Shown piece after piece: positions 3,099 to 43,628 of a stretch of DNA of 64,000 nt. The first letter of the stretch is position 1; the number at the start of each line of letters is the position of its first letter. Both the position numbers and the translations under genes were made by a program. This DNA is from a virus, in the IMG/VR virus record IMGVR_UViG_3300034200_001896, positions 21,764-85,763 of that record. The stretch is one strand, 5' to 3'. Under the pieces are notes generated by a model. It was given only the letters and a program-made list of their open reading frames with translations. It did no database searches and had not been told where the DNA came from.

Positions 3099-4694
3099 GT
3101 GCAAGATATCTTTAAAAACTGGAGAAGCTTTTTAAACGAAAGCAAGGTAATAAAAGAAGTGTATCATATAGAGGGTATGTACCTACCAAAAGAATTCATT
3201 TCTAAGCTTCCAAAACCAGTTAAAGATAAAATTGAAGAATATGATGTATTAGATTTTGCTTTTGAAAGATATCGTCAATTATTTCCAGAAATAAAATTAA
3301 CATCTCTACCACAAAAATTCCTTGTTCCATATGGCTCTGGAGAGGAATTGTTATTTGATTTTTCTTCTGATTCAACTCCAGAGACACAAGCTAGAAAACC
3401 CACACCAGATGAAATGGAACAGAGAAATAAATCTATTCCAGTACTTCCTAAAAATTGGTATAACGCTTTTCTTAATCGTCTAGGAGAGCCATTACTGACA
3501 GAAAGCAAGCATAAGCGTGACTTATCTTTAGTAACGACTCTAGCGGTTTTTGATTTTGACCACACTTTATATAAAAGTCCAGAGGCTCCAAAGGGTCATA
3601 AAGGTAATTGGCATATCAAACCCGAATCCCTTCCAGAAAATCCTAAAGATAAATCTTGGAATAATGAGATAGTAATCAAAGCACAGGAACTTTGTGATGA
3701 CCCATCTGTTTACTGTGTCATGATGACGGGTCGTGTAGGAAATGTGTTTGGTGAAAAGATAGATAATTATTTTAAACAACGTGGATTAAACTTTGCTAAA
3801 ACTTTTTATAATGAATTCGGTGGCGATACCGCTGACTATAAGATTGATAACATTAATAAACTTCTTAACAAATTATCAAATGTAAAATCGTTAATTATGT
3901 GGGACGATGATAGGGAAAAGGCAGAGAAATATTCTGAAGAGTTTGCAGACAAAATAGATTATAAGATACACATGGTCGGCGATGAAGAATTATCAGAAAG
4001 TAAATTTGAAGAAGTAAAATATGATGTAAATAATGTCGGTCTATTAACTTTAGATAAACGTAAATTCATTCTTTTCGATACTAAAAGATTAATTGATTTT
4101 GTTTCGCAATTACCAAAAGATAATCCAGATATGGATAGCGCTGCATTAATAGATAACAATATTACTTTATCTTATGCAGCAGTAACTCCAAATGATAAGT
4201 TAAAAAATCCCTGCATGGGTGCTGCTGAAAGAAGTATATTAGCGCAGAATCCAAGTATAAAAGGTTCTGGAATGGGCAGATACATGATGTCTGTTTTATT
4301 TAAGTTCTATCCAGAGGGTATAATGAATGATAGAGGTGATGTTAGCCCTATGGCTAAACAATCAGCTAGATTATTAGCGTTATCAGGCTTGGCTAAGATT
4401 AAGAAAATAAAAGACGGCGATGAGATTCTTGATAAATTAGATGATATTGATAATCCAAAAACAGCAACAAAAAAAGATGATTGCGAAGTTCATAATGATG
4501 ATTTGTTAGATAGAGTATATCAATACAACGACCCTAACGTAAATGAGCAAGCGTTATTAAAGAAATCACAAGAAGCCCTACAGGTCTGTGAACAAATAAC
4601 AGAAGGTAATTGGCCCACATATGCATTAGAAGATTTAATAGAAGCTTCAGGAATGGCTCTTTATTATAGAAGTATAGATACTTCTAATATGTAA
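3099..4694 (+). CDS. Multidomain protein with HAD (Swiss-Army-knife RNA-repair-like) phosphatase domain
   Basis: VFDFDHTLYKSP (HAD motif I), MMTGR (motif II), K, WDDD (motif IV). Confidence 0.65.
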   Translation: MQDIFKNWRSFLNESKVIKEVYHIEGMYLPKEFISKLPKPVKDKIEEYDVLDFAFERYRQLFPEIKLTSLPQKFLVPYGSGEELLFDFSSDSTPETQARKPTPDEMEQRNKSIPVLPKNWYNAFLNRLGEPLLTESKHKRDLSLVTTLAVFDFDHTLYKSPEAPKGHKGNWHIKPESLPENPKDKSWNNEIVIKAQELCDDPSVYCVMMTGRVGNVFGEKIDNYFKQRGLNFAKTFYNEFGGDTADYKIDNINKLLNKLSNVKSLIMWDDDREKAEKYSEEFADKIDYKIHMVGDEELSESKFEEVKYDVNNVGLLTLDKRKFILFDTKRLIDFVSQLPKDNPDMDSAALIDNNITLSYAAVTPNDKLKNPCMGAAERSILAQNPSIKGSGMGRYMMSVLFKFYPEGIMNDRGDVSPMAKQSARLLALSGLAKIKKIKDGDEILDKLDDIDNPKTATKKDDCEVHNDDLLDRVYQYNDPNVNEQALLKKSQEALQVCEQITEGNWPTYALEDLIEASGMALYYRSIDTSNM

Positions 4695-5062: not shown

Positions 5063-5755
5063 ATGAAGTTTATTTGCGACCACACCTATGGTTTCGGCAA
5101 AATGCGGAATCAGAACATTATCTATGTTCCGTTTGGTGTGATGTTGGAGCCAAATGAATATAAAGAATATCTAGAACAAGGTTGGTATCCAGCAACAAAT
5201 GATATATGGTTTCAAACACGCAGCACGCGAATAAACTTAGAACATTATAAGCCAACAAAAACAGTATTACGTCTGGCAAAGAAGGTTAAATACTTTCCAG
5301 ACGTAAACATGACCCCAGCCAAACGTGAAAGATTAGCACGAATCTATGACAAGTATATCGAACACAAAGGCTATAGTGATGATATGTCAATTGATGATAT
5401 TATCACTAATAGTCACGGGCATATCTACTATGTATATAATAATGAAATCGTTGCATTTGCGTTTTATAAAGTTATCGAAGATGCTTACTTGGGCATAGAA
5501 TTTGCGTGGGATTATGGCGAACCAAAACTTTCTTTGGGTCATGTCAATGTATATTACAATTCTCTTTTTGCTCGTTTCAAGCGTTGTAAATATATTTACC
5601 TATCTTCTGGATATGAAAGTTGTTCCATTTATAAAAGCCAATATCCGGGCTTTGAGTGGTGGCTTGGTTACCAATGGTCTACGGACGTTGAAATGTATAG
5701 AGAATTATGTAAAAGGGATGATGAAATAAAGATAGAAGCTGGAGACTTAATATAA
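5063..5755 (+). CDS. Aminoacyl-tRNA--protein transferase (ATE1/Bpt-like, GNAT fold)
   Basis: YLEQGW...RSTRI N-terminal motif; WDY..PKLSLG...Y.YL..GY..CS.YK.QY C-terminal motif resembling ATE_C. Confidence 0.65.
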   Translation: MKFICDHTYGFGKMRNQNIIYVPFGVMLEPNEYKEYLEQGWYPATNDIWFQTRSTRINLEHYKPTKTVLRLAKKVKYFPDVNMTPAKRERLARIYDKYIEHKGYSDDMSIDDIITNSHGHIYYVYNNEIVAFAFYKVIEDAYLGIEFAWDYGEPKLSLGHVNVYYNSLFARFKRCKYIYLSSGYESCSIYKSQYPGFEWWLGYQWSTDVEMYRELCKRDDEIKIEAGDLI

Positions 5756-5818: not shown

Positions 5819-6814
5819 ATGATTGATTACGCTGATGTTATTGTTGACTTGGCTTATGGTGATTCCGGTAAGGGAAAAGTAACGCACTTACTTAGTAAGA
5901 GTGGTGAATATACACATTGTATTAGGTACAATGGGTCGAATAATGCAGGCCATACAATCTATCATGAGGGTAAAAAGATTGTAACACATTCAATTCCTAC
6001 AGGGGTTGTGCATGGTGTCAAGTCTATTATTGGCCCCGGTTGTGTAATGAATGTTAAGCAATTCTTTGATGAACTTAAGGAGTTGCAAGATGCCGGTATT
6101 AACACTGACGGTCTTGTATATATTGCAAAGAACGTTCATATCATCACAGAAGAGCACTTGCAAGAAGATAGACAAGATGCTAAGATAGGTACAACGAAGC
6201 GAGGCAACGGTCCAGCATATCGTGATAAGTACGCTAGGAAAGGAATTCGCGCAGAACAGATTCCAGAATTACAAAACTATTTAATAGACATATATGAAGA
6301 GCTTCATAGTGACAATACAAGATGTCGCATCCTTTTTGAAGGGGCTCAAGGATTTGGTTTGGATATCGACTTTGGTGATTATCCTTATTGCACTAGCTCC
6401 ACATGCACAGTTGGCGCTGCTGTTGCTAACGGCGTTCCTCCAAGCAAAATTAGGAATGTATGGGGAATAACTAAAGTATATGAGACATATGTTGGTGGTA
6501 AAAAGTTTGAACCTGATGAACCTATATTTAAACATATTCGTGAACTTGGTGGTGAATATGGTGCCACAACTGGTCGTCCTCGTCAATGCAATTGGATAAA
6601 TACAGCTCTATTACGCAAAGCTGCCAGAATCAACGGTGTTAATCGTGTTGTGTTTAATAAGGCAGATATCCTTCGCAAGATTAATCAATGGAAGGCATAT
6701 GATGTAAATGGTAATCTTATTAACTTCCAAGATGAAGAGCTAATGAAACAATGGATGCAAGAAGTATTACCAGATGTAAAGATTTATTGGAGTGATTCAC
6801 CCGATAAATTGTAA
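5819..6814 (+). CDS. purA: Adenylosuccinate synthetase (short form)
   Basis: GDSGKGK, NAGHT, IGTTKRGNGPAY, FEGAQG..LDIDFGDYPY, EYGATTGRPR, NKAD motifs. Confidence 0.95.
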   Translation: MIDYADVIVDLAYGDSGKGKVTHLLSKSGEYTHCIRYNGSNNAGHTIYHEGKKIVTHSIPTGVVHGVKSIIGPGCVMNVKQFFDELKELQDAGINTDGLVYIAKNVHIITEEHLQEDRQDAKIGTTKRGNGPAYRDKYARKGIRAEQIPELQNYLIDIYEELHSDNTRCRILFEGAQGFGLDIDFGDYPYCTSSTCTVGAAVANGVPPSKIRNVWGITKVYETYVGGKKFEPDEPIFKHIRELGGEYGATTGRPRQCNWINTALLRKAARINGVNRVVFNKADILRKINQWKAYDVNGNLINFQDEELMKQWMQEVLPDVKIYWSDSPDKL

Positions 6815-6911: not shown

Positions 6912-7190
6912 ATGTCTAACCGTACCAATTCAACCCGTCGTTCTTCCACCCGCAACTCCCGTCCAGTTTATAATGTAACTGAAAAGGGCGTATATCGTCG
7001 TGAGCGCAAGCTTTCACGTATCGGCATGGGAATTCGTCGTGGTGATACCCGTCACGGTGATTATTCCAACGTAGTACTTTGGAAGCCAACTGACAGCGAT
7101 GGTCCGTCCCGCCGTTTCGTAATGTCCCTTGCTGAAGCACGTGCATTCAAGGCATTCCTTGACCGTGAGCTTCAAACTCTCGCTCGCTAA
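6912..7190 (+). CDS. Small basic hypothetical protein
   Basis: AGGAG RBS; upstream TTTACA-N17-TATAGT promoter. Confidence 0.6.
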   Translation: MSNRTNSTRRSSTRNSRPVYNVTEKGVYRRERKLSRIGMGIRRGDTRHGDYSNVVLWKPTDSDGPSRRFVMSLAEARAFKAFLDRELQTLAR

Positions 7191-7243
7191 ATAAAAAGCA
7201 GCAAGACTAAAATAGAATAGTTGCAAATCTGCCGCCCACCTGA

Positions 7244-7264
7244 TACAATCAGGTGGGCGTTTTG
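7244..7264 (+). terminator. Probable intrinsic terminator
   Basis: GCCCACCTGAT/ATCAGGTGGGC hairpin (about 7234-7258) followed by GTTTTT. Confidence 0.55.
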
Positions 7265-7277
7265 CATTGGAGATACA

Positions 7278-7733
7278 ATGACTGAAAACAAAACTAACAT
7301 TTTAAAAGTTGCATTTCCTAATTTTATTCGTGAGAGTTTTTATATTGAATGTGGTAATGGTTGGTTTGATATTATTGCAGAGGTTTGTCAATTTATTGAA
7401 TCAAAAACAAAATATTGCCACGCTCAACAAATTAAAGAAAAGTTCGGCCTACTCAGAATCTATTTCGATTGTGATTACGATGAAAATGGTGAACCATTAA
7501 CCGATAGAGATACAATGGAAGAAATATATTCCTTTATTAATAAAAAAGAAAGCGAAAGTAAAAACATATGTGAAGATTGTGGTATAAAGCTTGTAGAAGA
7601 TAACAGGGCTAAGAAAGAACATCTTGGTTATTGGATTGCAAATATCTGTATGGATTGTCTTGATAGAACAAATCGGGAAGCATCAGAAAGATTAGAAAAA
7701 AAGATTTATAAGACCCTTAAAGAAAAGCCATGA
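7278..7733 (+). CDS. Conserved phage hypothetical protein (QIKEKFGxLRxY family, CxxC pairs)
   Basis: CGNGW..II, QIKEKFGLLRIY, CEDCG, CMDC; GGAG RBS. Confidence 0.65.
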   Translation: MTENKTNILKVAFPNFIRESFYIECGNGWFDIIAEVCQFIESKTKYCHAQQIKEKFGLLRIYFDCDYDENGEPLTDRDTMEEIYSFINKKESESKNICEDCGIKLVEDNRAKKEHLGYWIANICMDCLDRTNREASERLEKKIYKTLKEKP

Positions 7734-9795
7734 GTGAATTTAAATTAGGAGACTTAGTTGAATTCATCCCAGAAAACTTTGATTATCCAAATTATACATA
7801 TCGCTTAATAGGTATTGGTTATATAGAACAAATTACAGAAGATAATATTTATTTCGTTTATTGCGGTAAAGTTATAAAACAACAAATGAAAAACTTTGCA
7901 GAACTAGAATTAAAAGATAAAACCTTTTCTTTTACGGAAGAAATAATGAGGATAATATGCAGGAAGATAAATTCAAAGTAGGAGACTTGTTAGAATTTTG
8001 TACAGAAAAGCAGCAGCTATGGAATCACGATGACTTGATTTATGAAGGTTACGGAATGGTTGTTTCTATTGAGCCGGGAGAACATATAGATGAAATGATA
8101 TATACAGTTGATATTTATAAAGGCACAGAAACAAGTATAAAGGCTAATGCCGATATATCTGGATTTAAGTTTAAACTTTACGAGTCACAAATTCATCATG
8201 ATATGAGGTTACTAAATGCGGGAACTAAAAATAAAACCAGAGATAGGTAAATTATATAAATTCCGAGAAGATAATCGTGAAGCACTGTTAAAAAAATATA
8301 GTCACCATTATACTGGCTTGCTTTTATGTATTCAGACAGATATAATAAATGATATAAGCGTTCCAGAATCTGTAAAAAATTGGGTTCAACATCCTAATCC
8401 TATATATCAATTTGAAGTTTATAACTGCGTACAGATATTTGCACAAATAGATTTTTTCGGTAGAAAAGAAATAATTATTAAGTCTCCTTTGTATTTAACT
8501 CTTTTTGAACTAAACGATATGATAGAGGATGCATATGGCAAGAAAGAAACATAAAATTGGTGATTTAGTTTTATGCACTCCACAAGAAGAAGATGTTCGG
8601 TTTGTTTTTGGAATCATAAAAAGCTACGACCGTCAATTTTACTTTGTCGATTGGACCGATGGTAATCATGACACGGAACCTTATTCTTGGCACGAAATTC
8701 AACACTGGAAAGAGATATTACAAAAACATGTTAAAGGTCGGTGATTTAATAATGAATAAGTTTGGTAATCTTGGAATGATAACCAGTTTAGTTTATCATC
8801 CAACTATTAAAAAATATAATAGTGGTTATGTTGAGTGGTATCCATATAATCCAAAACAAGGTAAAATTAATTTATCTATTTCTAAACTAGAAGAATATAG
8901 AGATAACTTTACTGGTTATATGTTTTTAGAAAAACGCGGGGCACGGGTAGAATGAAAAAACGCGAAGCGCCTAAAAAAATTTTTCCTCCCGGCTCACTCA
9001 TCGCCATGCGTGATAGTAAATTAATAGGTATGATAGTAGAATATGACTACGATTCCAACCTCCATGATTGGTATCGTGTTGAATGGTTTGGTGCGAACGG
9101 CGAAATTGGATGGATGGAAACCCTAACATCACACGAAATAAAGATATACACCCGTGAATATAAGCAATTGCGTAAAGACCTTGGCATCTAGAAAGACTAT
9201 GGTATCATGTATCTATGAATCAGTTCCTTGGACACTTGGTAATGAATTATGCTTACAGGTTAGGAATGGTTATCTATACAGATATAGATAATGGTTGGCA
9301 TACGGTTGAATGGTTGGGCGGCAACATAGAAATCGCCAGTTATCCTACATTTTCAATAACCAATTTTATCAGGACATACGAAAATTATAAGGATGAAAAC
9401 AAGCTATGAACGAAAGCGAACTTTATCGTGTTGGAGAATTGGTGCATTCCCGCCATGCAGGATATGGAATAATTACAAGTGTATACCAACACGGTGCAAC
9501 TATCTATTGGTTTGAACTTAAGAAATATAGTCCCGAAGCATTTCATTGGGTAGCAACGTTTAAAAAGGATTTGTATAATAAATTACGGGGTGAAGAAGAA
9601 TGAAATACGCAATCGGTGACCTTGTGGCGTTTGGTTATAAAATCGGCATGATAACCAATTATGATGTTAAAGATAAAACATATCAAGTTGAATGGGCGGC
9701 AAATCGCTTAGAGCTTATTCCAGAGGAACGTGTTGGTGCCCTACGCGAACACTTTGTGACACTCAGGAATTTGCTAAAGCTATCAGGATATTCTA

Positions 9796-10014
9796 ATGGA
9801 ATTTAAGATTGGTGATTTGATAGCGGTGGAAACAATAAACTCTTATCATAAAACAAGTAAAATAAATTTAGGAATGATTGTTGAAATTATATCAAATAGC
9901 GATACTCCTTATCGTGTAGAATGGTATGGATTACAAGTGAACCGTCCAGTATACATGCGACAAAGCATTGAACATATGCGTAGAACTTATATAAATTTTC
10001 GTAAAACAATATGA
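9796..10014 (+). CDS. KOW/Tudor-like paralogue (representative)
   Basis: MEFKIGDLIA...LGMIVE...YRVEWYG. Confidence 0.75.
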   Translation: MEFKIGDLIAVETINSYHKTSKINLGMIVEIISNSDTPYRVEWYGLQVNRPVYMRQSIEHMRRTYINFRKTI

Positions 10015-10220
10015 ACTTTAAGATTGGTGACTTGGTAGCAACTCCGCAATGGACATTGCATGGCGATAAAACGTGCTTGGGCATGATTGTTGCCAGAAAC
10101 ACAAGCAGTTGGAAGGTAGATTGGTATGGAATAGAAGTGGAATTTTCTTGGTATACACCAGATGATATAAAACTATTTCGTAATAATTATTTAAAGTTGC
10201 GTAAGGAAAATGGAATTTAA
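10011..10220 (+). CDS. KOW/Tudor-like paralogue
   Basis: MNFKIGDLVAT..WT...KTCLGMIV...WKVDWYG; close duplicate of next gene. Confidence 0.75.
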   Translation: MNFKIGDLVATPQWTLHGDKTCLGMIVARNTSSWKVDWYGIEVEFSWYTPDDIKLFRNNYLKLRKENGI

Positions 10221-10416
10221 ACTTGGTGATTTAGTTGCCACAGATGCTTGGACACCAGAAGGATATAAAACATGCTTAGGCATGCTTGTATATAGAAGAG
10301 ATGATTTATATTGGAAAGTTGATTGGTATGGTTGTTATGTTAAAACGCCTTGGTATTTACCATATGAATTAAAACCGATGCGTGAAAAATATTTAGAATT
10401 ACGTGACAACTTATGA
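10210..10416 (+). CDS. KOW/Tudor-like paralogue
   Basis: MEFKLGDLVAT..WT...KTCLGMLV...WKVDWYG. Confidence 0.75.
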   Translation: MEFKLGDLVATDAWTPEGYKTCLGMLVYRRDDLYWKVDWYGCYVKTPWYLPYELKPMREKYLELRDNL

Positions 10417-12355
10417 AATACGGTGAACATTACATAGGCCACATGGTTGGTTATAGAGAAGACGACCGCTTTTCTATTGGCATGATTGTTGGATATGATG
10501 AAGATATTCCGCATGTTCCATATCGTGTTGAATGGTATGGTGAATATAGGGGAACAAAATTGGTTAATTATACGTTAGCACAAATAATGTTTTACATGGA
10601 CGAGTACAATAAATGGACGAAGAAGATATCCTAACACGACCAAAAGTTGGCGATATGGTCATGGACATGGAAAATTATGGCATGATTATAGAACAGATTG
10701 GTAGCAAGTTCCTAGTTGAATGGTATGGCCGGATGCGTTATGCTTATCGCTATGATGTTTCAACGGTACGTTTGATGCGGCAAGACTTCTTGTATTATAA
10801 AAAACATGGCAGGCATCCATTGTCAATGTAAATATGAACTATATTCCACGTATTGGCGACTTAGTGTTATATGAGTCTCTTCATGGCAAATCTACTCTTG
10901 GAATAATTAAGGGCATATATATCTATCCTTCGGATTTAGAAAATATACATCCAGATGATTTTGTTGGCAATCTTTACCGTATACTTTGGATAACCGAGAA
11001 CGATGAAGCAGGATATATTATAGATAGGGTAAAGGAATATAGACAGAATTATTTAAGATGGAGAAAAAATAATGGTTTATGAACCACAGGTTGGTGATTT
11101 GCTAGCGGTTGAAAACGAAAATTCTCAAATTGTGTTGGGAATGATATACAAAAAATATAAAAAGGGTGGACGGACAGATTACTATACGGTAGAATGGTTT
11201 GACGAAACAACGTCATATGAATACAACATTGGCGACATAGATACATTTAGAATACAATTTGTAAAATGGCGAGACAGTGAATGCATCAACCTCCATACAT
11301 AGGTGAATTGCTTGCTGTCCATGACTATAAAAAAGATTATATTCTTGGAATGATTGTAGACATATGTGATGATGGTGATTTTCCATACGTTATAGATTGG
11401 TATTACAAAGACGCATCTGTTGTTGATTCAGCTTATACAAGTTTAGAAGATGTGCTACTGTATCGTAAACGTTTTCGGGAACTAAAAAAGAAACTATGAA
11501 CATAAATATTGGCGACCTTGTGTTACAAAACGGCAATAACCTTGGTATGATTATTGGTGCATTTGATGGTCAATATATAGTTGAATGGTATGGCAATGAT
11601 GATGTAACGCCATACAAGTTTAATTATTCGCCGTTTATCACCGAAAGCTTTCGCAGAACATACATGAAATACAGGAAATGGATATGAAAGATTATATTCC
11701 AAAACTAGGTGATTTAATACTAAAGCATGTTGGTAAAGAATATATGATTGGAATGATTGTCGAAGAATATGCCTCCTCTTGGTCTGTGGAATGGATTGGT
11801 CGTGACCTCCTATATTCAGGATATACACAAACAGAATTGATGCATGCCAGACAATCTTTCCTAAAGTTTAAGAAAACCCTATGAAACATCCTATCACAAA
11901 AGTTGGTGCCCTTGTTGCCCACAAAACTAATCCACAAAGTGAATTCACCTTGTTTGGTCATGTGGTGGAGATAGTCCAGAACGATAGCTACCCACATGGT
12001 TATGGTTATAGGGTTATTTGGCACAACAATGATAGCGATGAATACGTTTACAACACGCGAGAAATAGATTACTATCTAGGTATAGTTGAGGAGTTGAAGA
12101 AACTATGAAAGCCCATGTCGGAAGTCTTGTTGCAGTTAAAATAACAGGGCTTCATGCGTTAAATAATGGCAGCAAAATAGTTGATGGTAGCAAACGCACA
12201 GGTTTATTATTTGGTCATGTGGTGGAGATAAAAGAGGGTAGCAAAAAGATTATTAAGCATTACCGTGTTATATGGGATAATGGTAACGAGTTTCTTTACA
12301 ATGATTATGAAATGGATACATATCTAAAAAACATACAGGATATAAAGAACAGTTA

Positions 12356-12829
12356 ATGAGTACTACCTACCCACTACCCCACCACCCCCCCTCTACCCAT
12401 CTACTACTCCAGCAGGGGGAGATGGTCTATATGATAAGCGGGAGATTAAAGCGTGAAAGGATGAAAGGATATTTCACTACATATTCCTATATGGACCCGC
12501 AAGAAGTAGTGGACAACTTTATAGCTAATGATAGTGAAGCTGTAGCCAAACGTAAATCCACCGGGGAACTAATAAATATAAGTACCCATATGATTGGTTA
12601 TATCCTAAGCGATAGGAAGTATAGTGAACAACATGCTGTGATGCAAAGTCCCCTATTAATAGGTTATGATATCCGTTGGGAATATGCTCAGAGTAACGGG
12701 CATCATAATATCTTTGAAGATGAGGAAAGCATTGTGCCATTAAAAGACCTAATTATATTAAACCCAGAAGAATTAAAGGGTGAGGTCTTTAATGATGGTG
12801 GACCCAAGAAAGGTCAGCAAGCCGGATAA
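12356..12829 (+). CDS. Hypothetical protein (start uncertain)
   Basis: 157-codon ORF following the array; N-terminus lies in a C-rich low-complexity tract. Confidence 0.5.
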   Translation: MSTTYPLPHHPPSTHLLLQQGEMVYMISGRLKRERMKGYFTTYSYMDPQEVVDNFIANDSEAVAKRKSTGELINISTHMIGYILSDRKYSEQHAVMQSPLLIGYDIRWEYAQSNGHHNIFEDEESIVPLKDLIILNPEELKGEVFNDGGPKKGQQAG

Positions 12830-12908
12830 AGATAGACCATACTTGTTGATTGATGTAACTATATCAACCATCCTGTTATATTTTTTATATTGTATAGTTT
12901 CTTAACAA

Positions 12909-12966
12909 GTCAGAAGCATGACGCCAAAAGCTTGTCATGCCATATAGTTGACGCCAAGATTCTGTC
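12909..12966. repeat. Cluster of four G(T/C)CA-N6-TG(A/T)C boxes
   Basis: Boxes start at 12909, 12923, 12939, 12953 in a long intergenic region. Confidence 0.6.
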
Positions 12967-13317
12967 GTGACCATATGTTGCCCTACTTGTAGCGTAAAGA
13001 TTCTATACATGGGTGGCGCTAATAACTAACAATGGCAAAAGTAGAAAAACTAATACGGTGTGTTAGGGATTGGAAAAGGTGAGAGTATTTAACCCCCACG
13101 CACGAAAAAATATCTAATCATTTCAAGGGGTTACGCAATCACATATTGTATATTCTTGCCTCGCTTAACAATTGACATAACACATGGTACCATGCCTAAT
13201 CGTTGCTGTATAGCTCCCTATATTCCCTGTATATTATTAGGTGATTATGTCTGCAATTAGATTGCGCTTGACTTCCCCATCCCTTGTGATATGATGGGGG
13301 AAGCCCGGCGGCTGGCG

Positions 13318-13381: not shown

Positions 13382-13473
13382 AATATCGCGGTGTGGGAGT
13401 CCGTGCTAGCCGCCATTATGGGTAAAAGGTCGGGAGTATATCAGACCTAGGCCCCCTGTCAAGGGAAAAGTGA

Positions 13474-13536
13474 TGTCACCCGCAGGTGACACCCCGAAAA
13501 CCTCTGCTTGCCAATATGGGGAGGGGGGTGTATTAT
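13474..13536 (+). promoter_or_regulatory. TGTCAC-N6-GTGACA box plus promoter
   Basis: Box 13474-13491, TTGCCA 13508, N17, TATTAT 13531. Confidence 0.75.
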
Positions 13537-13574
13537 GGGTACATCTTCAACGGCGAACCACGGAGAGAAAAACA

Positions 13575-14165
13575 ATGGCATGGAAAGACGGCAAGCGTAC
13601 AGTGATGTGCCGACGGTGTTATAGTTATGGGCATAATATGCGGTCCTGCCCTACAATGTCTCCAGAAATGAAGGCTATGTATAAGGATGGAGATAGGGCC
13701 CGCAAGTGCTCCTACTGTTCCGAGAAGGGTCACACCAAACGCAAGTGTGAGAAGCGAACCAAAGACATAGCAGAATACGCTGCCGAGAATAAGAAGTATC
13801 GGAAGGCTTATCTTGATGCTATGGTTCAGCATGGTCTGTCCATTGGTTCTCTTGTCACCCCCATGGGGGCACGTGGTGAAAAGGATTTGGGTGACATTAG
13901 CCCAGAATATATTGGCATGGTGACACACATTGAATGGAAAGACATTCAATATCGTCGTCGTTCCAATCGTCCTATCCAAGCTAAACGGTTGGGCGAACAA
14001 GAGAATAACTGGAATAATGATATGTGGTTGGGTAGTCCGCCAATCAATAGCAAGGATTATGAAAGCTGGGGCAGATGTCAAGTATTGTCCCGCCGTAATG
14101 ATATCCTGTCTCATGTTCCCGCTGATTGGTTGGATGGATTGAGCGGGGCAGAGGAGTTCTTCTAA
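13575..14165 (+). CDS. Protein with two CCHC zinc knuckles
   Basis: CRRCYSYGHNMRSC and CSYCSEKGHTKRKC (CX2CX4HX4C); GGAG RBS. Confidence 0.7.
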   Translation: MAWKDGKRTVMCRRCYSYGHNMRSCPTMSPEMKAMYKDGDRARKCSYCSEKGHTKRKCEKRTKDIAEYAAENKKYRKAYLDAMVQHGLSIGSLVTPMGARGEKDLGDISPEYIGMVTHIEWKDIQYRRRSNRPIQAKRLGEQENNWNNDMWLGSPPINSKDYESWGRCQVLSRRNDILSHVPADWLDGLSGAEEFF

Positions 14166-15408: not shown

Positions 15409-15711
15409 ATGACAAAACTGGAACAAGAGTATAGAAGCAATATTGGCAAGTTATTTGTTCACCGTGATAGACAATGGACAGGAGCAGCTAAAGGTTGGGT
15501 GTTGGTAGGTGATTTGGTAATGATTGAGAAGGTGGAGAAACAGGGAGGATGGTATCACTATCACATGGAGATTATCAAACGCAATCTAGATAATGTGCCA
15601 GATATAAAAGATTCTAGAAATAAGCGTATTGTATCTTGCCGAGAGTTTCACAGGCACAGCGAATCCCCCCTGTCACTCTTGGGTGACACGGAAAACAAGG
15701 AGGTTGCATAA
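15409..15711 (+). CDS. Hypothetical protein, MTxxExxYxxxIGKLF paralogue family
   Basis: N-terminus shared with 17187, 17547, 18665. Confidence 0.6.
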   Translation: MTKLEQEYRSNIGKLFVHRDRQWTGAAKGWVLVGDLVMIEKVEKQGGWYHYHMEIIKRNLDNVPDIKDSRNKRIVSCREFHRHSESPLSLLGDTENKEVA

Positions 15712-17101: not shown

Positions 17102-17180
17102 TGTCACCTACGGGTGACGTAACGTGGGGGTGACACCCTCTAAAAAACCGGTTGCAAAAAGGCGAGAGCAGAAGTATTAT
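17102..17180 (+). promoter_or_regulatory. Tandem TGTCAC-type boxes plus promoter of a leaderless gene
   Basis: Boxes 17102-17119 and 17118-17135, TTGCAA 17152, N17, TATTAT 17175, ATG 17187. Confidence 0.75.
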
Positions 17181-17186
17181 CTACCT

Positions 17187-17534
17187 ATGACCCCCACCGA
17201 AAAGCAATACGCAAAGAATGTTGGCAAGTTGTTTATCGCTAAGGACAGGCGATACAATACGGATAAGCAAAAGTTTGAGCATACTCATACTCTTTGTTTT
17301 GTCTATGGTATGTACCGTACTGGTTACAATGGTAAGAATGGTGCATATGGTTACAAGATACAATCTCTTTTTCCTAAACTAGAACAAGATTGGAGAATGG
17401 ATTATACTATAAGGTGTAAAGAGTTTAATGAAGGTGGTAGACGTGGCCACTGGCACAGGATGGATTATCTCCCCGCTACTCCTGAGAATACGGAACTGAT
17501 TGGAAAAGTTATTGACGTGCCAGAAAATGAATGA
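17187..17534 (+). CDS. Hypothetical protein, GKLF paralogue family
   Basis: MTPTEKQYAKNVGKLF. Confidence 0.6.
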   Translation: MTPTEKQYAKNVGKLFIAKDRRYNTDKQKFEHTHTLCFVYGMYRTGYNGKNGAYGYKIQSLFPKLEQDWRMDYTIRCKEFNEGGRRGHWHRMDYLPATPENTELIGKVIDVPENE

Positions 17535-17546
17535 TAAGATGATTAT

Positions 17547-17882
17547 ATGAGTCAGACAGAAAAGCGATACAACAAACACATAGGCAAACTGTTTTGGTGT
17601 GGTGAACGAACATATAATACAGATGTAAGCGGATATCATCATTACTTTACGCTTGTAATGATTAGGGGAATAGAAAAAGAAAAATACAACAAGAAATACC
17701 AATATATTGTAGATGTAATATCTTCCCCATATAAACATAACGAAGGAGAAACTTACAAAGTTGGATGTGCGTATTTCTGTAATGATTTGTTGGAAGTTAT
17801 TACCCAGTATGGAAATGGATACTTCCCAGCGACTACAGGAGATTTAGAAAAAGATGTTGCCCAAATCCAGAAAGCGTGTTAA
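17547..17882 (+). CDS. Hypothetical protein, GKLF paralogue family
   Basis: MSQTEKRYNKHIGKLF; R.YNTD shared with previous gene. Confidence 0.6.
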   Translation: MSQTEKRYNKHIGKLFWCGERTYNTDVSGYHHYFTLVMIRGIEKEKYNKKYQYIVDVISSPYKHNEGETYKVGCAYFCNDLLEVITQYGNGYFPATTGDLEKDVAQIQKAC

Positions 17883-18420: not shown

Positions 18421-18664
18421 GCTGATGTAGATGTGGTAAAGGCAGGGAGGCAGAAACTTTAACTCTGTCCTCCCTGCCTGTTGTTTCTAACATAAGGATT
18501 AACCAAAATGTCACTGTGGCGTTGTTCAGTTTGTCATAAGGCAGGTCTTGAAGATGATTTTGTTTTCGTTCCTGTTGATGATACTCATGAGGATATATAC
18601 TGTTTTGATTGTGCTCCTCCAGAGGCAATGAAACAGCATTGGCCTGTCGATGAGGAGGAAGACA

Positions 18665-18949
18665 ATGACAGCGACTGAGAGGAATTATAGAAAGTATCTT
18701 GGCAAGCTTTATTGGTCTACTAACAGAGGTTCGCTTGTGACTATCGAAGCAGTTAAACGTTCACAATACGGTAACCGTTGGAAATTTGATATATTCTATA
18801 TGAATGCCAACGTTGGACAGCAGACTAGAAAGATTGATTGTGTAAGAATAGCCAACCTAATTAAAGAAGGTACTTGGATTCCAGCAGACCAGTATATCAA
18901 AAACCCGCCTCCCGCTGTCAAGCTGAAAGTAGCAGAAAAAAGTTGTTGA
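18665..18949 (+). CDS. Hypothetical protein, GKLF paralogue family
   Basis: MTATERNYRKYLGKLY; GGAGG RBS. Confidence 0.6.
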   Translation: MTATERNYRKYLGKLYWSTNRGSLVTIEAVKRSQYGNRWKFDIFYMNANVGQQTRKIDCVRIANLIKEGTWIPADQYIKNPPPAVKLKVAEKSC

Positions 18950-20848: not shown

Positions 20849-20921
20849 GGCCCTATCATCTAGAGGTCTAGGATACCGCCCTTTCAAGGCGATTACGCGA
20901 GTTCGAATCTCGCTAGGGTCA
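20849..20921 (+). tRNA. tRNA-Glu(TTC)
   Basis: GGCCCTA/TAGGGTC acceptor; CT-TTC-AA loop. Confidence 0.9.
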
Positions 20922-20922
20922 T

Positions 20923-21135
20923 ATGGAAATCAAAGAAGGTGACTTGGTTTGGAATAAATTTAATGGCTATGGGACGGTACTAAAGATTAGGATTGAATAT
21001 TGCGCCGTCTATTGGTATGCACCGACAAACCCAACAGAGAACACAAACTATCTTAAACCAGATTATCATGTAAAGTATGTAAGACAGTGGAAACGTAATG
21101 TTGAAGATAAATGCAGCGTTAGCTCAATTGGATAG
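20923..21135 (+). CDS. KOW/Tudor-like paralogue
   Basis: IKEGDLVW...YGTV...VYWY. Confidence 0.65.
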   Translation: MEIKEGDLVWNKFNGYGTVLKIRIEYCAVYWYAPTNPTENTNYLKPDYHVKYVRQWKRNVEDKCSVSSIG

Positions 21136-21605: not shown

Positions 21606-21809
21606 ATGACAACAATAAATGTTGGTGATTTGCTGCGTACTAATAGTTGGTTTGGTGTTGTGATGCGTATAGATGAAGGAAATAATTACGAAGAAACTGC
21701 ATATATGGTTCACTGGTTCTTCCCTGACAATAGAAATCCTATTAGTATGATAAACGGTTATAATGCATTAAAGTATAGAATTAATGTATTGACAATACTT
21801 GGAAAGTAG
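21606..21809 (+). CDS. KOW/Tudor-like paralogue
   Basis: INVGDLL...FGVV...YMVHWF. Confidence 0.65.
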   Translation: MTTINVGDLLRTNSWFGVVMRIDEGNNYEETAYMVHWFFPDNRNPISMINGYNALKYRINVLTILGK

Positions 21810-21970: not shown

Positions 21971-23085
21971 ATGTTAAAGACAAGAAAGCTGAATCTAGGT
22001 GACTTGGTTGCGGTAACAGAGCATAAAGACAATATCACTATTGGAATGATTGTAGAATTTGACGATGCTTATACTACCTACAAGATTGAGTGGTGCAACG
22101 GTAAACATATCTGGGCTAAGGCATCGTGGATAACTACCCAACAGTACCGTAACATTTTCCTTGACTGGAAGGCACAACTGTTATAGGATACTTCCCGTGA
22201 ACGACCCTTACATCGGCAAGTTGTTCCTCATGGATTGGCATCCTCCATCGTTCGGTGTTAACCCGACTCAGCGTATATATCTTTTCATGGTTGTCGGCAA
22301 GGGTAAAGAACATCATACCAAGCAAGGTTATATTTGTGAGTCCCTGACTTCGGGTAGGCAATATATCTACAACGAATACGAGATTATCTCAGGACTTGTG
22401 CAATACAAGCAATGGAAGGAGCAAAATAATGTTTGATATCCGCGAAGGTGATAGTTTGTTGGGTTATAGTATTGCTACCAAGGATTATATTGTTGGCATC
22501 GTTACTGATATTAAGCTTGACGCAATTGCCCGTAAGCAGTATAATGTTCATTGGGCTGATGCACAAGTTGGATGGTTGGACCATAACACCGCTGTACGTT
22601 TGCGTGAGAAATATCTTGACTTCCGCAACAAGTAGGGTATAGTGTTTATCATGGATATCAAAATCGGTGACAGTGTTGCGTTCATTGGCAGTGTTGCATC
22701 CACTGGTAAATCTTTCAGCTACGTTGGCGTGGTGTCAAAGATATCTAACCATAACCCTCGTTATTGTGTTTCTTGGAATGACGGTACGGAAACTTACGAA
22801 GATAGTCCTGAGATTGCCATTTTCCGAAAACAATACCTTGACTTCCTCAACAAGTAGGGTATAGTAACTATCATGGATATCAAAGTCGGTGACAGTGTAG
22901 CATTTAAGCCTAGGAAAACGTCTAACGAATACGATTTGGGAATCGTTGTAAATATAATTCCAAACAAAAATTACTGTGTAAAGATAATATGGAATGATGT
23001 TGCATTTCCCTCTAGTGAGACTGTTGAGTTAATGGCGGACGCTCTAGAGTTCCGTCAGATTTATCTTGACCTTCTCGCAAAGTAG
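21971..23085 (+). repeat. Second run of five KOW/Tudor-like genes (21971, 22197, 22429, 22651, 22873), most with own leaderless promoter
   Basis: GDLV/GDSV...G(I/M/V)(I/V)...W motifs; TTGAC-N17/18-TAtagT promoters embedded in the upstream gene end; 22197 is closer to the GKLF family. Confidence 0.75.
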
Positions 23086-24582: not shown

Positions 24583-24950
24583 ACCATGAAAAGACTTAAG
24601 CGTGGCGACCTAGCTTGGATGATTTTTGATGGTAAGCAAAGCATGGTAATGATTACGGAGTGCAGATACAAGACTGATGTTTATCTTTGTGCCCCTGTTG
24701 CCGTAGCGCATCATGCATCATGGGTGTCAGGCTTTAGGTTGGAGCGTATAGTACCGTAAGGATTGCCTCCCCCTGCCACTACCGTAGTAGGGTGGGGGGA
24801 GGTCGTGAAAAAAACAAAATTTCCTGTGCAGCCAGCCGCCGTTAAGGCGGTATTCTAGTATATATTAGTACATATATATATGTATGGGGTAGTGGCGGCT
24901 AGCTCTTGACAGGGTACTACTGTAGTGGTAGAGTAGGAGGGGGCTACAGA

Positions 24951-30952: not shown

Positions 30953-32649
30953 ATGGAAAATCTCAATCTAATCGGACGTTTAATAGCCTTCCACACCAAT
31001 TTTGCAAGAACAAAAATAATATTGGGTGTAGTATCTGATACACGGATGGTGACATCAAAAAACTTATTTGGCTTTAAAAAACAAATAACAGAATATAAGA
31101 TTGTTTGGCAGGATAAGGAATATGACGATACATGGACAACAGAAAATGGCATTAAAACAGGCGCAGAAATATTAAATAACTATAAAAATTTATGAAAAAC
31201 TCATCCATCAAAGTAGGTGACCTTGTGCTTTGCAAGGCAAAAATAGACCCAAGTTATGATTTTGAAGATAAAAATATAAAACTTGTGATTGGGTGGATAA
31301 CAAAAAAAACTACAACTACTTTTATGGATGGTAAATTTACAATTTTCCATGTACAATGGAGCGACAAAGAAACAGATGGTGAATTAAAAGAGGAAGATGC
31401 ACTATCGGTACGTAATTTTTTCTTAAAAATGCGAAAGGAATGGGGTATTTAAAATGGCTACTTGTTTTAAGTGCATGTCTAAAATTGATGCTTGGGCTAG
31501 AGTTTGTCCGTATTGCACTAGAGATGTATATAGTATCAGCAGCTCATCAGGGGGTTCTTCCGCTCAAAGCGAAGGAATATTTTCATTAGTAATTTTGATT
31601 ATCATAGTTGGCATGGCTATATTTAAATAAATTTTTCTATTTAAAAAGACCCATATGCATGGGTAGTAGAAACCCCATCATCGATGCTAAATCCCCTACG
31701 GGTTGCTAATTACTATTAGCAACCCTATTTTATTTGCATCAGAAAGGCCGTAGATTTGCGTACAAACGATTCTTTGAGGACAGGGCAACTTGGACACGTT
31801 CAACGAAAAGAGCATTTCTATAGGCGCTTTAGTGCGTATAAAGGTGCATGGAGCAAAGCGCTATCTTGGCATCGTCACGGAACGCATTTGGCACGGCAAT
31901 GCTAAAAAACTAGGTTATACTGTTTACTTGATGGAACTGGAAGCTAGCATCATGATGTTCGACCATGAATTTGAGGTTTTAAGTGATAAAGTATCGTAAT
32001 CCAATAGCAATTGGTGCTTTAGTAAAAGATAAAAGCACAAAACGCCTAGCAATCATTCTAGATAAAATGAGCACTAGCGAATGGGAGCGAACTGATAAAG
32101 ATAATGAATTCAATGCTGGAATAGTTTATGGCATGCAATTTATGGACGGAATAGGACCGTTTAAGACATATCGGTACGCTTATGAGGTAGAAGTACTAAG
32201 TCGAGGAAAGGAGAATGGATAGAAAGGTAATAGATTTTAAAATAGGTGACCTTGTTTACCTAAACATAGAAAATGGCGACGGTGGGATGGGGATGGTTAT
32301 AAGCGATATAGTTTATACGGAAATAGAGTTTTATTATGCTGTTTTCTCCATGCGGGAAAATAAAATCATAATTGCGTTCCCTTATGAATTGGAATTAGTA
32401 CGTGGCTAACTATTTATATGTATGGGGAACAAAAGAATCATTCCAGACGTTCATATACCAATTGGTGCGCTTGTGAGAGTTAATATCATAAAGCGTAGAG
32501 AAGATTTAGCCGTTGTTGTAGATAAAAACGTTGGCTTACTTGAAAACTGTTGGTATATGGTCCATAGCTTAAGCACTGGTAAAGAATATATGGCATATCC
32601 TCATGAACTTGTTTGGTTAACTAAGGAAAGGGATGGTGAAAGCGGGTAA
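30953..32649 (+). repeat. Third run of KOW/Tudor-like genes (30953, 31192, 31790, 31983, 32215, 32422)
   Basis: IG(D/A/R)L(V/I)...(L/I)G.(V/I)...Y.V; several end in ExEVL. Confidence 0.65.
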
Positions 32650-33700: not shown

Positions 33701-34131
33701 ATGGCATTCCGTAGACCATGTTATGTAAAGGTAGGTGATTTAGTTCGTACCCGTGGAGATTTAGATATCTACGGATATGTTACATATATTGATGGTAACA
33801 GCGAAACTGGTGAATATTACGTAGAAATAGTTTTCGATGAGGACGCTGACCCATTGTATTTTTATGATGACCAACTGGAAGTATTAACGGTAATTAAAGA
33901 ATAATGGAACATAACATAGGCGATTTGCTCCTTGCACACACCGTTGATGGTGGTATAATGTTTGGAATAATAACAAAGATAGATGAATCTTTATTTGACA
34001 AAAATTTTAACTTATACACCGTAACTTGGTTTCAAAAAAATAATATTCAAGATACCCGTGACTATACATACAACAACATAACTCGTTTGAAAAAAAATTT
34101 AGAAGATTATTTTAATAACGATAGGGTTTAA
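33701..34131 (+). CDS. Two more KOW/Tudor-like genes (33701-33904, 33904-34131)
   Basis: VKVGDLV; HNIGDLL...FGII...YTVTWF. Confidence 0.65.
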
Positions 34132-36696: not shown

Positions 36697-36876
36697 AATT
36701 CAAATGCCCGAGAATCTTTCTCCTAAAGACTTAGACCGTATCTCTTATGTTTTTTCTAAGATGTCTATGGCTTCCAAGCACGATTTTTTAGCAGCAATGA
36801 TGGTAGAGTGCCCAAAGCAGTATATAAAAGTCATAGAAGCCCTTGGAAGCGATTACAAAAAATCTATGGTGCAAGC

Positions 36877-37104
36877 ATGAAAGCTGGTGCTTTAGTTAAA
36901 GTTGAAATATTGACACCCGGTTTATCAGTATATTCTTATGGTATTTTAGTTGATGATGAAGCTCATGACTTATATGACGGCAGAGAAAAATATAAAAAGA
37001 TATGGGTTTTTAAATATCCTGAGTCATATGGAGAAATGGAGCCTAAAAACATGTTAATTCAAGAAGAACGTATAACTCACATTAAGACGTTTGAGGATTG
37101 GTGA
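36877..37104 (+). CDS. KOW-like paralogue
   Basis: MKAGALVK...YGILV. Confidence 0.5.
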   Translation: MKAGALVKVEILTPGLSVYSYGILVDDEAHDLYDGREKYKKIWVFKYPESYGEMEPKNMLIQEERITHIKTFEDW

Positions 37105-43454: not shown

Positions 43455-43628
43455 ATGAAACATAATATTGGCAATTTAGTTTATGATGGAACAAGTATTG
43501 GTTGGATTATAGAAGTTGGCCGTTCAGGATATTATCATATTGAGTTTTGTAATAACCAAAAAGGTTGGTATAGTGGAGAAGCAGTTAGCCTTCTAGTAGA
43601 AGCATTAAAATCAAAATTAAATAAATAA
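43455..43628 (+). CDS. KOW/Tudor-like paralogue inside the tRNA cluster
   Basis: MKHNIGNLVY...IGWII...YHIEF; 57 aa. Confidence 0.6.
   Translation: MKHNIGNLVYDGTSIGWIIEVGRSGYYHIEFCNNQKGWYSGEAVSLLVEALKSKLNK

Follow-up and report, generated by a model that had tools for sequence, protein, structure and literature searches.

We analyzed a 64,000-nucleotide stretch of viral DNA, hereafter the window (bases 21764-85763 of the 85,763-bp IMG/VR viral contig IMGVR_UViG_3300034200_001896, CheckV completeness 34%), and found 34 genes for a family of small proteins of 57 to 97 amino acids (aa), 20 of which stand in tandem within 7730-12356. All 34 reading frames are intact, and together they total 7,322 bp, or 11.4% of the window. 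Structure models place the family fold among the Tudor/SH3/KOW-type small beta-barrels, usually with an amphipathic C-terminal helix added. The fold itself is known; the family is new, having neither a Pfam nor a PHROG entry. The history of the array points to birth-and-death evolution, in which genes duplicate locally in tandem, diverge for a long time, and are lost or exchanged as whole units, and not to a recent amplification.

The source is an uncultured lake-water phage with a large genome, and lake-water metagenomes (runs X1-X14) contain near-identical DNA. A related contig, whose PurZ-like adenylosuccinate-synthetase homolog (PurZ) is 76% identical to that of the window, is 174,280 bp long and rated 96% complete; the phage genome is therefore estimated at roughly 180-250 kb. 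We found no cultured relative: a megablast search with 7000-13000 was empty, tblastn of family member 10011 (members are named by a start coordinate) against 50,697 GenBank phage records gave no match, and tblastn of two large window proteins returned single-domain matches only, below 40% identity. Using the PurZ homolog as a marker, we gathered 14 related loci, including the sister contig G001 (61,054 bp, PurZ 98% identical to that of the window). Searches for related loci with member 33904 found no relative, and those with member 9600 found G001 alone.

Family membership and gene arrangement

We searched all open reading frames (ORFs) of at least 40 aa in the window (n = 378; 193 on the plus strand and 185 on the minus strand) with a hidden Markov model (HMM) that we built from 12 array genes and iterated until the number of matches stayed constant (24, 29, 31, 33, and 33). 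This family HMM matched 33 of the 193 plus-strand ORFs and none of the 185 minus-strand ORFs. Across the whole 85.8-kb contig, the same 33 were found at E <= 1.1e-8 and nothing further up to E = 10, with no member in the upstream 21.7 kb. Because these E-values come from an HMM built on the members themselves, the independent checks are the clean gap in E, the lack of minus-strand matches, and 516 clusters outside the window. A six-frame profile search of the window recovered 32 members. The 34th member, 32422-32649, was identified with an HMM of a divergent subgroup (31790, 32215, 33701, and one protein of the related contig G004) at E 1.3e-5.

The preliminary description of this DNA had put the family at about 39 copies in the window, about 21 of them in tandem at 7730-12356. 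The total proved lower (33 by the family HMM, 34 with the subgroup HMM), and 20 of the tandem genes are members. The 21st, ORF 8216-8554, is not, with an hhalign probability of 0.2 against the family alignment; it was likewise rejected as a member of a second, 'GKLF' family in the region (E 0.17 to 0.3). Copies outside the array had been placed at 20.9-23.1, 24.6, 30.9-34.1, 36.9, and 43.5 kb. Those at 20.9-23.1, 30.9-34.1, and 43.5 kb are members, and the candidates at 24.6 kb (24586-24759; hhalign probability 19.7, HMM E 1.7) and 36.9 kb (36808-37104; 7.3 and 2.2) were left uncounted. The hhalign null, given by the best minus-strand ORF, was a probability of 3.1; among the 323 other ORFs compared with the family alignment, only 15409, 24586, 32422 (probability 14.4), and 36808 exceeded it, with probabilities of 7 to 24. 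Widening the HMM by 187 small database homologs gave no new significant member, the best new match being a segment of 13470-14165 (E 0.0019).

In database searches, the family profile matched 516 clusters at 50% identity (E <= 1e-3), nearly all of 57 to 92 aa, and their source names read 'hypothetical protein' only. None of the 33 members reached a Pfam gathering cutoff, the best matches being Chromo (E 0.0057) and Tudor_5 (E 0.021) with one member each, and none of the 10 members scanned (of 33) matched a PHROG at E <= 0.01. Fused forms were not found among proteins of 171 to 2000 aa, which is weak evidence. Of 30 ESM Atlas matches, 29 were unnamed viral clusters, and the top score of 0.90 is within reach of shuffled proteins. 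The family HMMs matched nothing at E <= 0.1 in bases 1-30000 of N4 and bases 30000-77554 of phiEco32, and literature searches at the level of titles and abstracts gave no paper on this protein family.

The array and its flanks are arranged as follows, where (+) is the plus strand, E refers to the family HMM, percentages are identities to the G001 ortholog, and dN and dS are the nonsynonymous and synonymous substitution rates.

7231-7264 (+): terminator hairpin with a 12-bp stem and a T run, ending the upstream gene 6912-7190
7221-7249 (+): candidate promoter TTGCAA-17 nt-TACAAT with TG before it, 9 of 12 consensus positions, overlapping the hairpin region
7278..7733 (+): 5' flank gene, 151 aa, start behind GGAGA; heads the array slot in all five related contigs
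7730..7981 (+): member 1, 83 aa, weak; E 7.7e-10; 65%, dN/dS 0.22
7957..8250 (+): member 2, 97 aa; E 9.5e-16; 93%, dN/dS 0.06
8216..8554 (+): non-member, 112 aa, a real gene; 86.6%, dN/dS 0.17
8529..8744 (+): member 3, 71 aa; E 1.6e-20; 54%, dS 1.26
8728..8955 (+): member 4, 75 aa from an internal ATG (ORF opens 8644); E 2.6e-14; 95%
8952..9191 (+): member 5, 79 aa; E 1.5e-18; no reciprocal best hit, the G001 gene at the same position being non-orthologous
9215..9409 (+): member 6, 64 aa; E 7.4e-16; 89%
9406..9603 (+): member 7, 65 aa; E 7.8e-12; 55%, dS 1.24
9600..9806 (+): member 8, 68 aa; E 3.3e-15; 98.5%, dN/dS 0.04
9796..10014 (+): member 9, 72 aa; E 2.9e-22; no reciprocal best hit in G001; missing from one run X5 contig
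10011..10220 (+): member 10, 69 aa, modeled first (score 93.3, see below); E 4.6e-23; 86%
10210..10416 (+): member 11, 68 aa, closest paralog of 10011 (57%); E 1.2e-20; no G001 counterpart
10413..10634 (+): member 12, 73 aa; E 1.3e-18; 97%, dN/dS 0.04
10613..10831 (+): member 13, 72 aa; E 3.7e-18; 94%
10834..11082 (+): member 14, 82 aa; E 8.3e-18; 49%, dS 1.27
11072..11302 (+): member 15, 76 aa; E 1.4e-22; 88%
11281..11499 (+): member 16, 72 aa; E 4e-19; 86%
11496..11687 (+): member 17, 63 aa; E 1e-17; 78%
11678..11884 (+): member 18, 68 aa; E 6.7e-18; 92%
11881..12108 (+): member 19, 75 aa, with a 21-mer at 11953; E 8.3e-18; 76%
12105..12356 (+): member 20, 83 aa, with a long beta1-beta2 insert and the 21-mer at 12210; E 8e-14; 82%
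12356..12829 (+): 3' flank gene, 157 aa, conserved, no family assigned; closes the slot

Between 7278 and 12829, 20 of the 22 gene junctions overlap, nine of them as ATGA, which agrees with the earlier observation that the genes are mostly coupled; the array genes are probably one operon with coupled translation. Some copies had also been seen inside tRNA clusters, and tRNA genes do directly precede four of the copies outside the array (the window has 14 tRNA genes). These outlying copies and two borderline candidates are as follows.

20923..21135 (+): member, 70 aa; E 9.1e-15; starts 2 nt after tRNA-Glu (20849-20921)
21606..21809 (+): member, 67 aa, after tRNA-Arg; E 2.1e-14
21971..22186 (+): member, 71 aa, after tRNA-Tyr; E 1.1e-21; G001 ortholog 98.6%
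22429..22635 (+): member, 68 aa from an internal ATG (ORF opens 22396); E 3.7e-14; G001 ortholog 97%
22651..22857 (+): member, 68 aa, with a promoter-like junction before it; E 4.5e-16
22873..23085 (+): member, 70 aa, with the same promoter-like junction; E 1.8e-14
30953..31195 (+): member, 80 aa; E 3.7e-13
31192..31452 (+): member, 86 aa; E 5.5e-17
31790..31999 (+): helix-less subgroup member, 69 aa, TTG start as listed; E 7e-9; in the subgroup HMM
32215..32409 (+): helix-less subgroup member, 64 aa; E 9.8e-10; in the subgroup HMM
32422..32649 (+): 34th member, 75 aa; subgroup HMM only, E 1.3e-5
33701..33904 (+): helix-less subgroup member, 67 aa (ORF opens 33644), modeled second (score 73); E 6.3e-9; 55% identical to a G004 gene
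33904..34131 (+): member, 75 aa; E 3.3e-19
43455..43628 (+): member, 57 aa, between tRNA-Ile and tRNA-Leu; E 4.2e-13
24586..24759 (+): borderline candidate, uncounted
36808..37104 (+): borderline candidate, uncounted

Fold and conserved positions

We ran AlphaFold2 on a 33-row family alignment for member 10011 and obtained a model with a predicted local distance difference test score (pLDDT) of 93.3 and a predicted template modeling score of 0.78, with strands at residues 8-15, 18-29, 34-38, and 47-48 and a helix at 50-67. Its structural matches in VIA were the SMN Tudor domain (1g5v; Z 5.8, root mean square deviation [rmsd] 2.9 over 54 residues), the Tudor-like part of ARF1 (Z 5.8), the FXR1 Tudor domain (5.6), a PWWP domain bound to single-stranded DNA (ssDNA; 5.5), chromo-barrels, and KOW (4.6). 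Member 33701, among the most divergent, was modeled as a five-stranded barrel without the helix (pLDDT 73) and matched Spt5 KOW (4zn3; Z 9.2, rmsd 3.0, 64 residues), R67 DHFR (8.1), Tudor (8.0, rmsd 2.0), PHF19 Tudor (7.9), and NusG KOW (7.8). Almost all fold matches of both models were Tudor, PWWP, MBT, chromo-barrel, KOW, or SH3 domains. Foldseek against the PDB and BFVD gave no match at E <= 0.001, its weak top rows being MBT, PWWP, Tudor, and uncharacterized phage proteins. Sso7d and Sac7d, SH3-like barrels of archaea that also carry a C-terminal helix, do not figure among the 50 best VIA matches listed for either model, and we draw no claim from this. A homodimer prediction scored 0.00, which is no evidence for or against a dimer.

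Sequence profiles pointed towards the same folds. The best solved-structure match of the family profile was the NSD3 PWWP domain (6g24), at a marginal E of 0.0033 (20.7 bits, profile positions 3-68). Two remote repeat proteins matched by the profile, P0065 (8 stretches) and P0127 (11 stretches), carry the Tudor family PF21743 of Pfam (PTM/DIR17-like) at 1.1e-23 and 5.4e-11. Together with the two models and their VIA matches, these hits support the earlier assignment of the proteins to KOW/Tudor/PWWP-type small barrels.

The barrel is common to both modeled members, and the C terminus takes two forms: a helix in most members, and a fifth strand in its place in the divergent subgroup 31790/32215/32422/33701. 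The two modeled folds therefore agree in the barrel and differ in the helix. A bent antiparallel barrel of 4-5 strands and about 50-60 residues, the fold-level mark of Tudor and 'Royal family' domains, is seen in both models. The helical segment that follows the barrel in PWWP domains is present in the 10011 model and absent from the subgroup. The P-W-W-P motif at the start of strand 2 is absent from the family, which has 'ilGmi' opposite the 'PWWPCMV' of NSD3; a strand-2 Gly, invariant in 33 of 33 members, aligns where PWWP has its name-giving motif.

The conserved columns of the 33 members fall mainly on the barrel core. Strand 1 carries a hydrophobic residue, Gly (100%), Asp (70%), Leu (85%), and Val; strand 2 reads hydrophobic-Gly (100%)-hydrophobic-Ile; strand 3 reads Tyr (70%)-x-Val (79%)-x-Trp (85%); and one more Tyr is conserved in 52%. 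In the helix, the conserved positions are hydrophobic, aromatic, Arg (52%), aromatic, and basic, with a spacing that corresponds to one helical face. These columns, hG(D)LV, hGhI, Y-V-W, and the R/aromatic helix positions, correspond to the motifs named in the preliminary description. In most other columns the commonest residue reaches at most about 30-40%, and the isoelectric point (pI) ranges from 4.1 to 9.5, with 13 members acidic, 14 neutral, and 6 basic. The conserved aromatics (Y-V-W and the further Tyr) align with core residues of NSD3 PWWP, and no conserved aromatic cage is recognizable in the alignment; variable positions may still form one. We infer a fixed scaffold with free surfaces, a pattern that would speak against one common ligand and against a uniformly basic nucleic acid binder.

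Among known systems, the 'Royal family' (Tudor, PWWP, chromo-barrel, and MBT) shares with the phage proteins the barrel topology, a G-D-x-V first strand, and an aromatic-x-V-x-aromatic third strand, and PWWP and chromo domains share with most members the helix after the barrel. The phage proteins differ from the 'Royal family' in being stand-alone viral proteins of 57-97 aa, in having h-G-h-I in place of P-W-W-P, and in having no link to methyl-lysine or chromatin. The KOW domains of NusG and Spt5 resemble the helix-less member 33701 in size and in the five-stranded barrel. However, most phage members carry a C-terminal helix that KOW lacks, the phage proteins are without an NGN domain, and none of the 33 matches Pfam KOW at E <= 0.1.

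Copy-number turnover and selection

The array occupies one syntenic slot between homologs of 7278-7733 and 12356-12829 in five contigs, and its copy number there is 20 in the window, 23 in G001, 2 in G002, 2 in G003, and 10 in G004; the array is not invariant across relatives. Homologs of 7278-7733, a gene with no Pfam or PHROG match, stand directly upstream with 93.5% identity in G001 and about 45% in G002, G003, and G004. Homologs of 12356-12829 follow directly after the array, with 82% identity in G001, 28% in G002 and G003, and 38% in G004. Orthologs of member 1 head the slot in G002 and G003 (37%). Outside the slot, G003 has one further member just after PurZ, and G004 has 14 more at 66-84 kb (24 in total by the family HMM, 12 by profile search); G001 has 31 members by the family HMM and 29 by profile search. 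None of seven more distant PurZ-linked records (G005-G011, mostly short fragments) had a profile match.

Between the window and G001 arrays, 17 of 20 members are reciprocal best hits, with protein identities to the ortholog that vary from neighbor to neighbor over 49-98.5% and dS over 0.13-1.27. Member 10210 has no counterpart, the genes at the 8952 and 9796 positions are non-orthologous, and G001 has four extra genes. The slot members of G004 had no BLAST match to window members or at most 30% identity, and the flanks are 38-82% identical.

Three pairs, 10011/10210, 11881/12105, and 22651/22873, had been described as recent duplicates. The two genes of each pair are mutual nearest paralogs, but only 57%, 37.5%, and 43% identical in protein and therefore not recent. 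We confirmed that 11881 and 12105, the adjacent pair with 37.5% identity, share an exact 21-nt repeat (11953-11973 and 12210-12230), for which 0 are expected by chance; gene conversion or constraint on a nucleotide element may account for it.

Genome neighbors group together in a maximum-likelihood tree of 62 members, from which G001 was left out for its near-duplicate orthologs: 9796/10011/10210 with 11072, 11496, and 11678 (support 90), 11881/12105 (91), and 22396/22642/22873 (89). Lineage labels cluster modestly on this tree: they need 14 changes, where shuffled labels average 18.6, and 14 in 1000 shuffles score as low. A natural variant was also found: in one contig of DNA run X5, 24 other letters replace 239 nt between 9819 and 10059 (depth 3.1, 92 letters on the shorter side, placed at 90% likeness). 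Both break points fall on codon boundaries, and coordinate arithmetic gives a net loss of 215 nt. This equals the start-to-start spacing of 9796 and 10011, so the variant is without exactly one gene unit, in frame.

The array had been likened to a gene accordion. In the poxvirus gene accordion (K3L), a host-interaction gene is amplified under selection by a host restriction factor, and its copies are recent and near-identical and later collapse. The phage array resembles it in that the tandem copy number of a small gene varies between close relatives; the range of 2 to 23 copies in the slot and the unit-length variant fit this part of the comparison. It differs in that recent near-identical copies are lacking: the closest pair shares 57% identity, and the sister genome has a stable ortholog for most copies. 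The part of the claim that implied recent amplification thus does not hold.

We estimated dN/dS by the Nei-Gojobori method for 21 reciprocal-best pairs between the window and G001 (one pair had dS = 0). Values were 0.04-0.39 with a median of 0.19, and those of non-family neighbor genes were 0.03-0.36; the family genes are therefore real and kept by purifying selection. Pooled by structural class, strands (499 codons) had a dN/dS of 0.17, the helix (364) 0.18, loop match states (471) 0.29, and inserts (174) 0.45. With the conserved core columns, this difference between strands or helix and loops or inserts fits the earlier view of a fixed scaffold with variable loops.

Possible functions, expression, and genomic surroundings

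We favor a reading in which a real small-barrel family, evolving by birth and death, supplies copies that act as binders with different partners, probably host factors, and we rate the chances of this reading as about even. Local tandem duplication creates the copies, whole gene units are lost or swapped, and the copies diverge until only the hydrophobic core is recognizable. Conservation is confined to the scaffold, and surfaces, loops, and net charge vary among the copies; for this reason, the proteins would most likely serve as an assortment of small binders, each with its own partners, and not as one enzyme or one common ligand binder. Their partners would most likely be host factors, in host takeover or counter-defense, because the gene set is dispensable and differs between close relatives. 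The array genes would be co-transcribed as one operon, and their translation coupled.

Several observations weigh against this reading. The VIA matches of member 10011 all lie below Z 8, a range that can reflect a common arrangement only, and no member matches a known anti-defense, toxin, or regulator family. Positive selection was not seen, every codon class including the loops having dN/dS below 1, and the absence of a conserved surface could also mean relaxed constraint. Nearest-paralog identities in the window reach at most 57% (10011/10210), with a median of 32%; the paralogs are old, and rapid arms-race amplification is therefore not shown. Resolution of the tree is poor (2 of 58 branches starred). 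Promoter-like sites number 31 in the region, where 30.3 are expected; this is no enrichment, and the sites are uninformative on temporal class. In two metatranscriptome libraries, contigs fall on 7 and 4 array pieces at >=99% likeness and a depth of 2-3.6, which is compatible with low-level transcription of the array; support for expression is weak, and DNA carry-over is possible. These contigs leave much of the array uncovered, and the uncovered parts carry no conclusion.

A more specific version would make the array a phage-encoded binder repertoire on a Tudor-like scaffold, each copy neutralizing or hijacking a different host protein, such as those of strain-variable defense systems. New specificities would arise by unequal crossing-over at the 5' 'K-I-G-D-L-V' codons, which would delete, duplicate, or recombine whole gene units. 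The in-frame, unit-length run X5 variant suggests unit-wise crossing-over of this kind; taken as a whole, we regard the repertoire as doubtful. We also consider it unlikely that the members are nucleic acid binders (RNA or ssDNA chaperones, or regulators of transcription or translation) that use the barrel face and basic residues of the helix, with the many copies tuning the expression of different RNAs of the phage or host. Nucleic acid is bound by small barrels of the KOW, Sm, PWWP, and cold-shock-like kinds, and among the structural neighbors are an ssDNA-bound PWWP domain (6kco; Z 5.5 and 7.4), the ARF DNA-binding domain (5.8), and the KOW domains of Spt5 (9.2) and NusG (7.8). The helix has semi-conserved basic positions (Arg in 52% at one column, a basic residue in 61% at another), and several copies adjoin tRNA genes. 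Yet 13 of the 33 members have a pI below 6 and only 6 a pI above 8, no conserved surface patch is visible, and none of the 33 reaches the Pfam cutoff of any nucleic acid-binding family.

Two further explanations make the copies either agents with one target or of little use at all. The RNA polymerase interaction domain of CarD and TRCF and the C-terminal Tudor domain of UvrD/PcrA bind RNA polymerase, and the phage proteins might use their Tudor-like domain in the same way, redirecting or shutting off host transcription. Partial CarD_TRCF_RID matches occur in two remote multi-repeat homologs (P0175, 24.1 bits with a cutoff of 23; P0103, 22.8 bits), and the fold matches include CarD (Z 4.5) and the C-terminal domain of UvrD on the RNA polymerase lobe (Z 4.6). 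These structural scores are no better than those of dozens of other small barrels, however, none of the 33 members matches CarD_TRCF_RID or PcrA_UvrD_tudor at E <= 0.1, and a single shared target would leave the unrelated surfaces of the 34 copies unexplained; we judge this explanation highly improbable. It is very unlikely, too, that the genes are neutral or selfish filler of little or no benefit to the phage, spread by unequal crossing-over or by hitch-hiking with nearby homing endonucleases and tRNA cassettes. Copy number does vary freely between relatives, from 2 to 23, HNH endonuclease genes lie in the same region, and a phage homing endonuclease is reported to drive segmental amplification of neighboring loci (PMC13096335). 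Against filler, all 21 ortholog pairs are under purifying selection, several being 97-98.5% identical in protein at dS 0.3, and the 34 intact reading frames and the persistence of the family in 516 clusters speak the same way.

Small phage genes without known function are the source of most new anti-defense and host-takeover proteins, and in this phage a single fold accounts for 34 genes, or 11% of the window, at a locus that differs in content from one close relative to the next. At about 70 aa and confidently modeled, the proteins are a structurally tractable set for asking how phages diversify small binders, and a name for the family would provide an annotation for many phage genes now called 'hypothetical' (516 clusters at 50% identity). 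If the copies truly have different partners, the scaffold could interest protein engineers, and if the repertoire version is true, the 516 metagenome clusters would be a large untapped library of miniature inhibitors. If the partners do not differ, the locus is still a clear case of birth-and-death gene-family evolution inside a virus.

The array itself contains no strong terminator; the strong one at 7231-7264 lies just upstream. At 22615-22653 and 22839-22877, TTGACT lies in the last codons of one paralog, a 16-nt spacer separates it from TATAGT, and a further 7 nt lead to the ATG of the next paralog; this promoter-like element would give a leaderless or nearly leaderless mRNA. The gene upstream of the array, 6912-7190, encodes an Arg/Ser-rich protein of 92 aa and has contig depths of 34 and 78 in the two RNA libraries, 10-30 times those of the array. 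The contigs on this gene stop where the strong terminator hairpin starts, at 7234 and 7223.

The surroundings of the array encode the PurZ-like protein, an HNH endonuclease, an AAA ATPase, and an RNA-repair-type HAD domain, and a PhoH-like protein is encoded further downstream at 48.9-50.2 kb. The purZ-like gene (5819-6814) matches phrog_1211, of the 'aminoadenylosuccinate synthetase' type, at E 1.3e-71, and homologs at 40-98% identity occur on 14 other viral contigs; the phage may use 2-aminoadenine in place of adenine. The HAD domain (E 8.3e-14) belongs to a 531-aa protein (3099-4694) and is of the 'Swiss Army Knife' RNA-repair type. A 230-aa protein (5063-5755) has a sub-threshold match to ATE_C, an arginyl-tRNA-protein transferase family (E 6.6e-4, 20.7 bits with a cutoff of 25). 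The 231-aa protein of 13470-14165 has two zinc-knuckle-like motifs (sub-threshold Pfam matches), and its middle segment is weakly like the first two strands of the small-barrel family (HMM E 0.0019; hhalign probability 2.3).

A second paralog family comprises four proteins of 100-136 aa (15409-15711, 17124-17534, 17547-17882, and 18650-18949) with an N-terminal 'Y-x-x-x-(I/V/L)-G-K-L-(F/Y)' motif. The protein at 17124, which has no Pfam match, was found at E 2e-17 by an HMM of the other three. In 2-kb blocks, G+C content is lowest at 60-62 kb (25.8%; sugar-modification genes) and highest at 14-16 and 26-30 kb (48.6%); the array has 34-36%.

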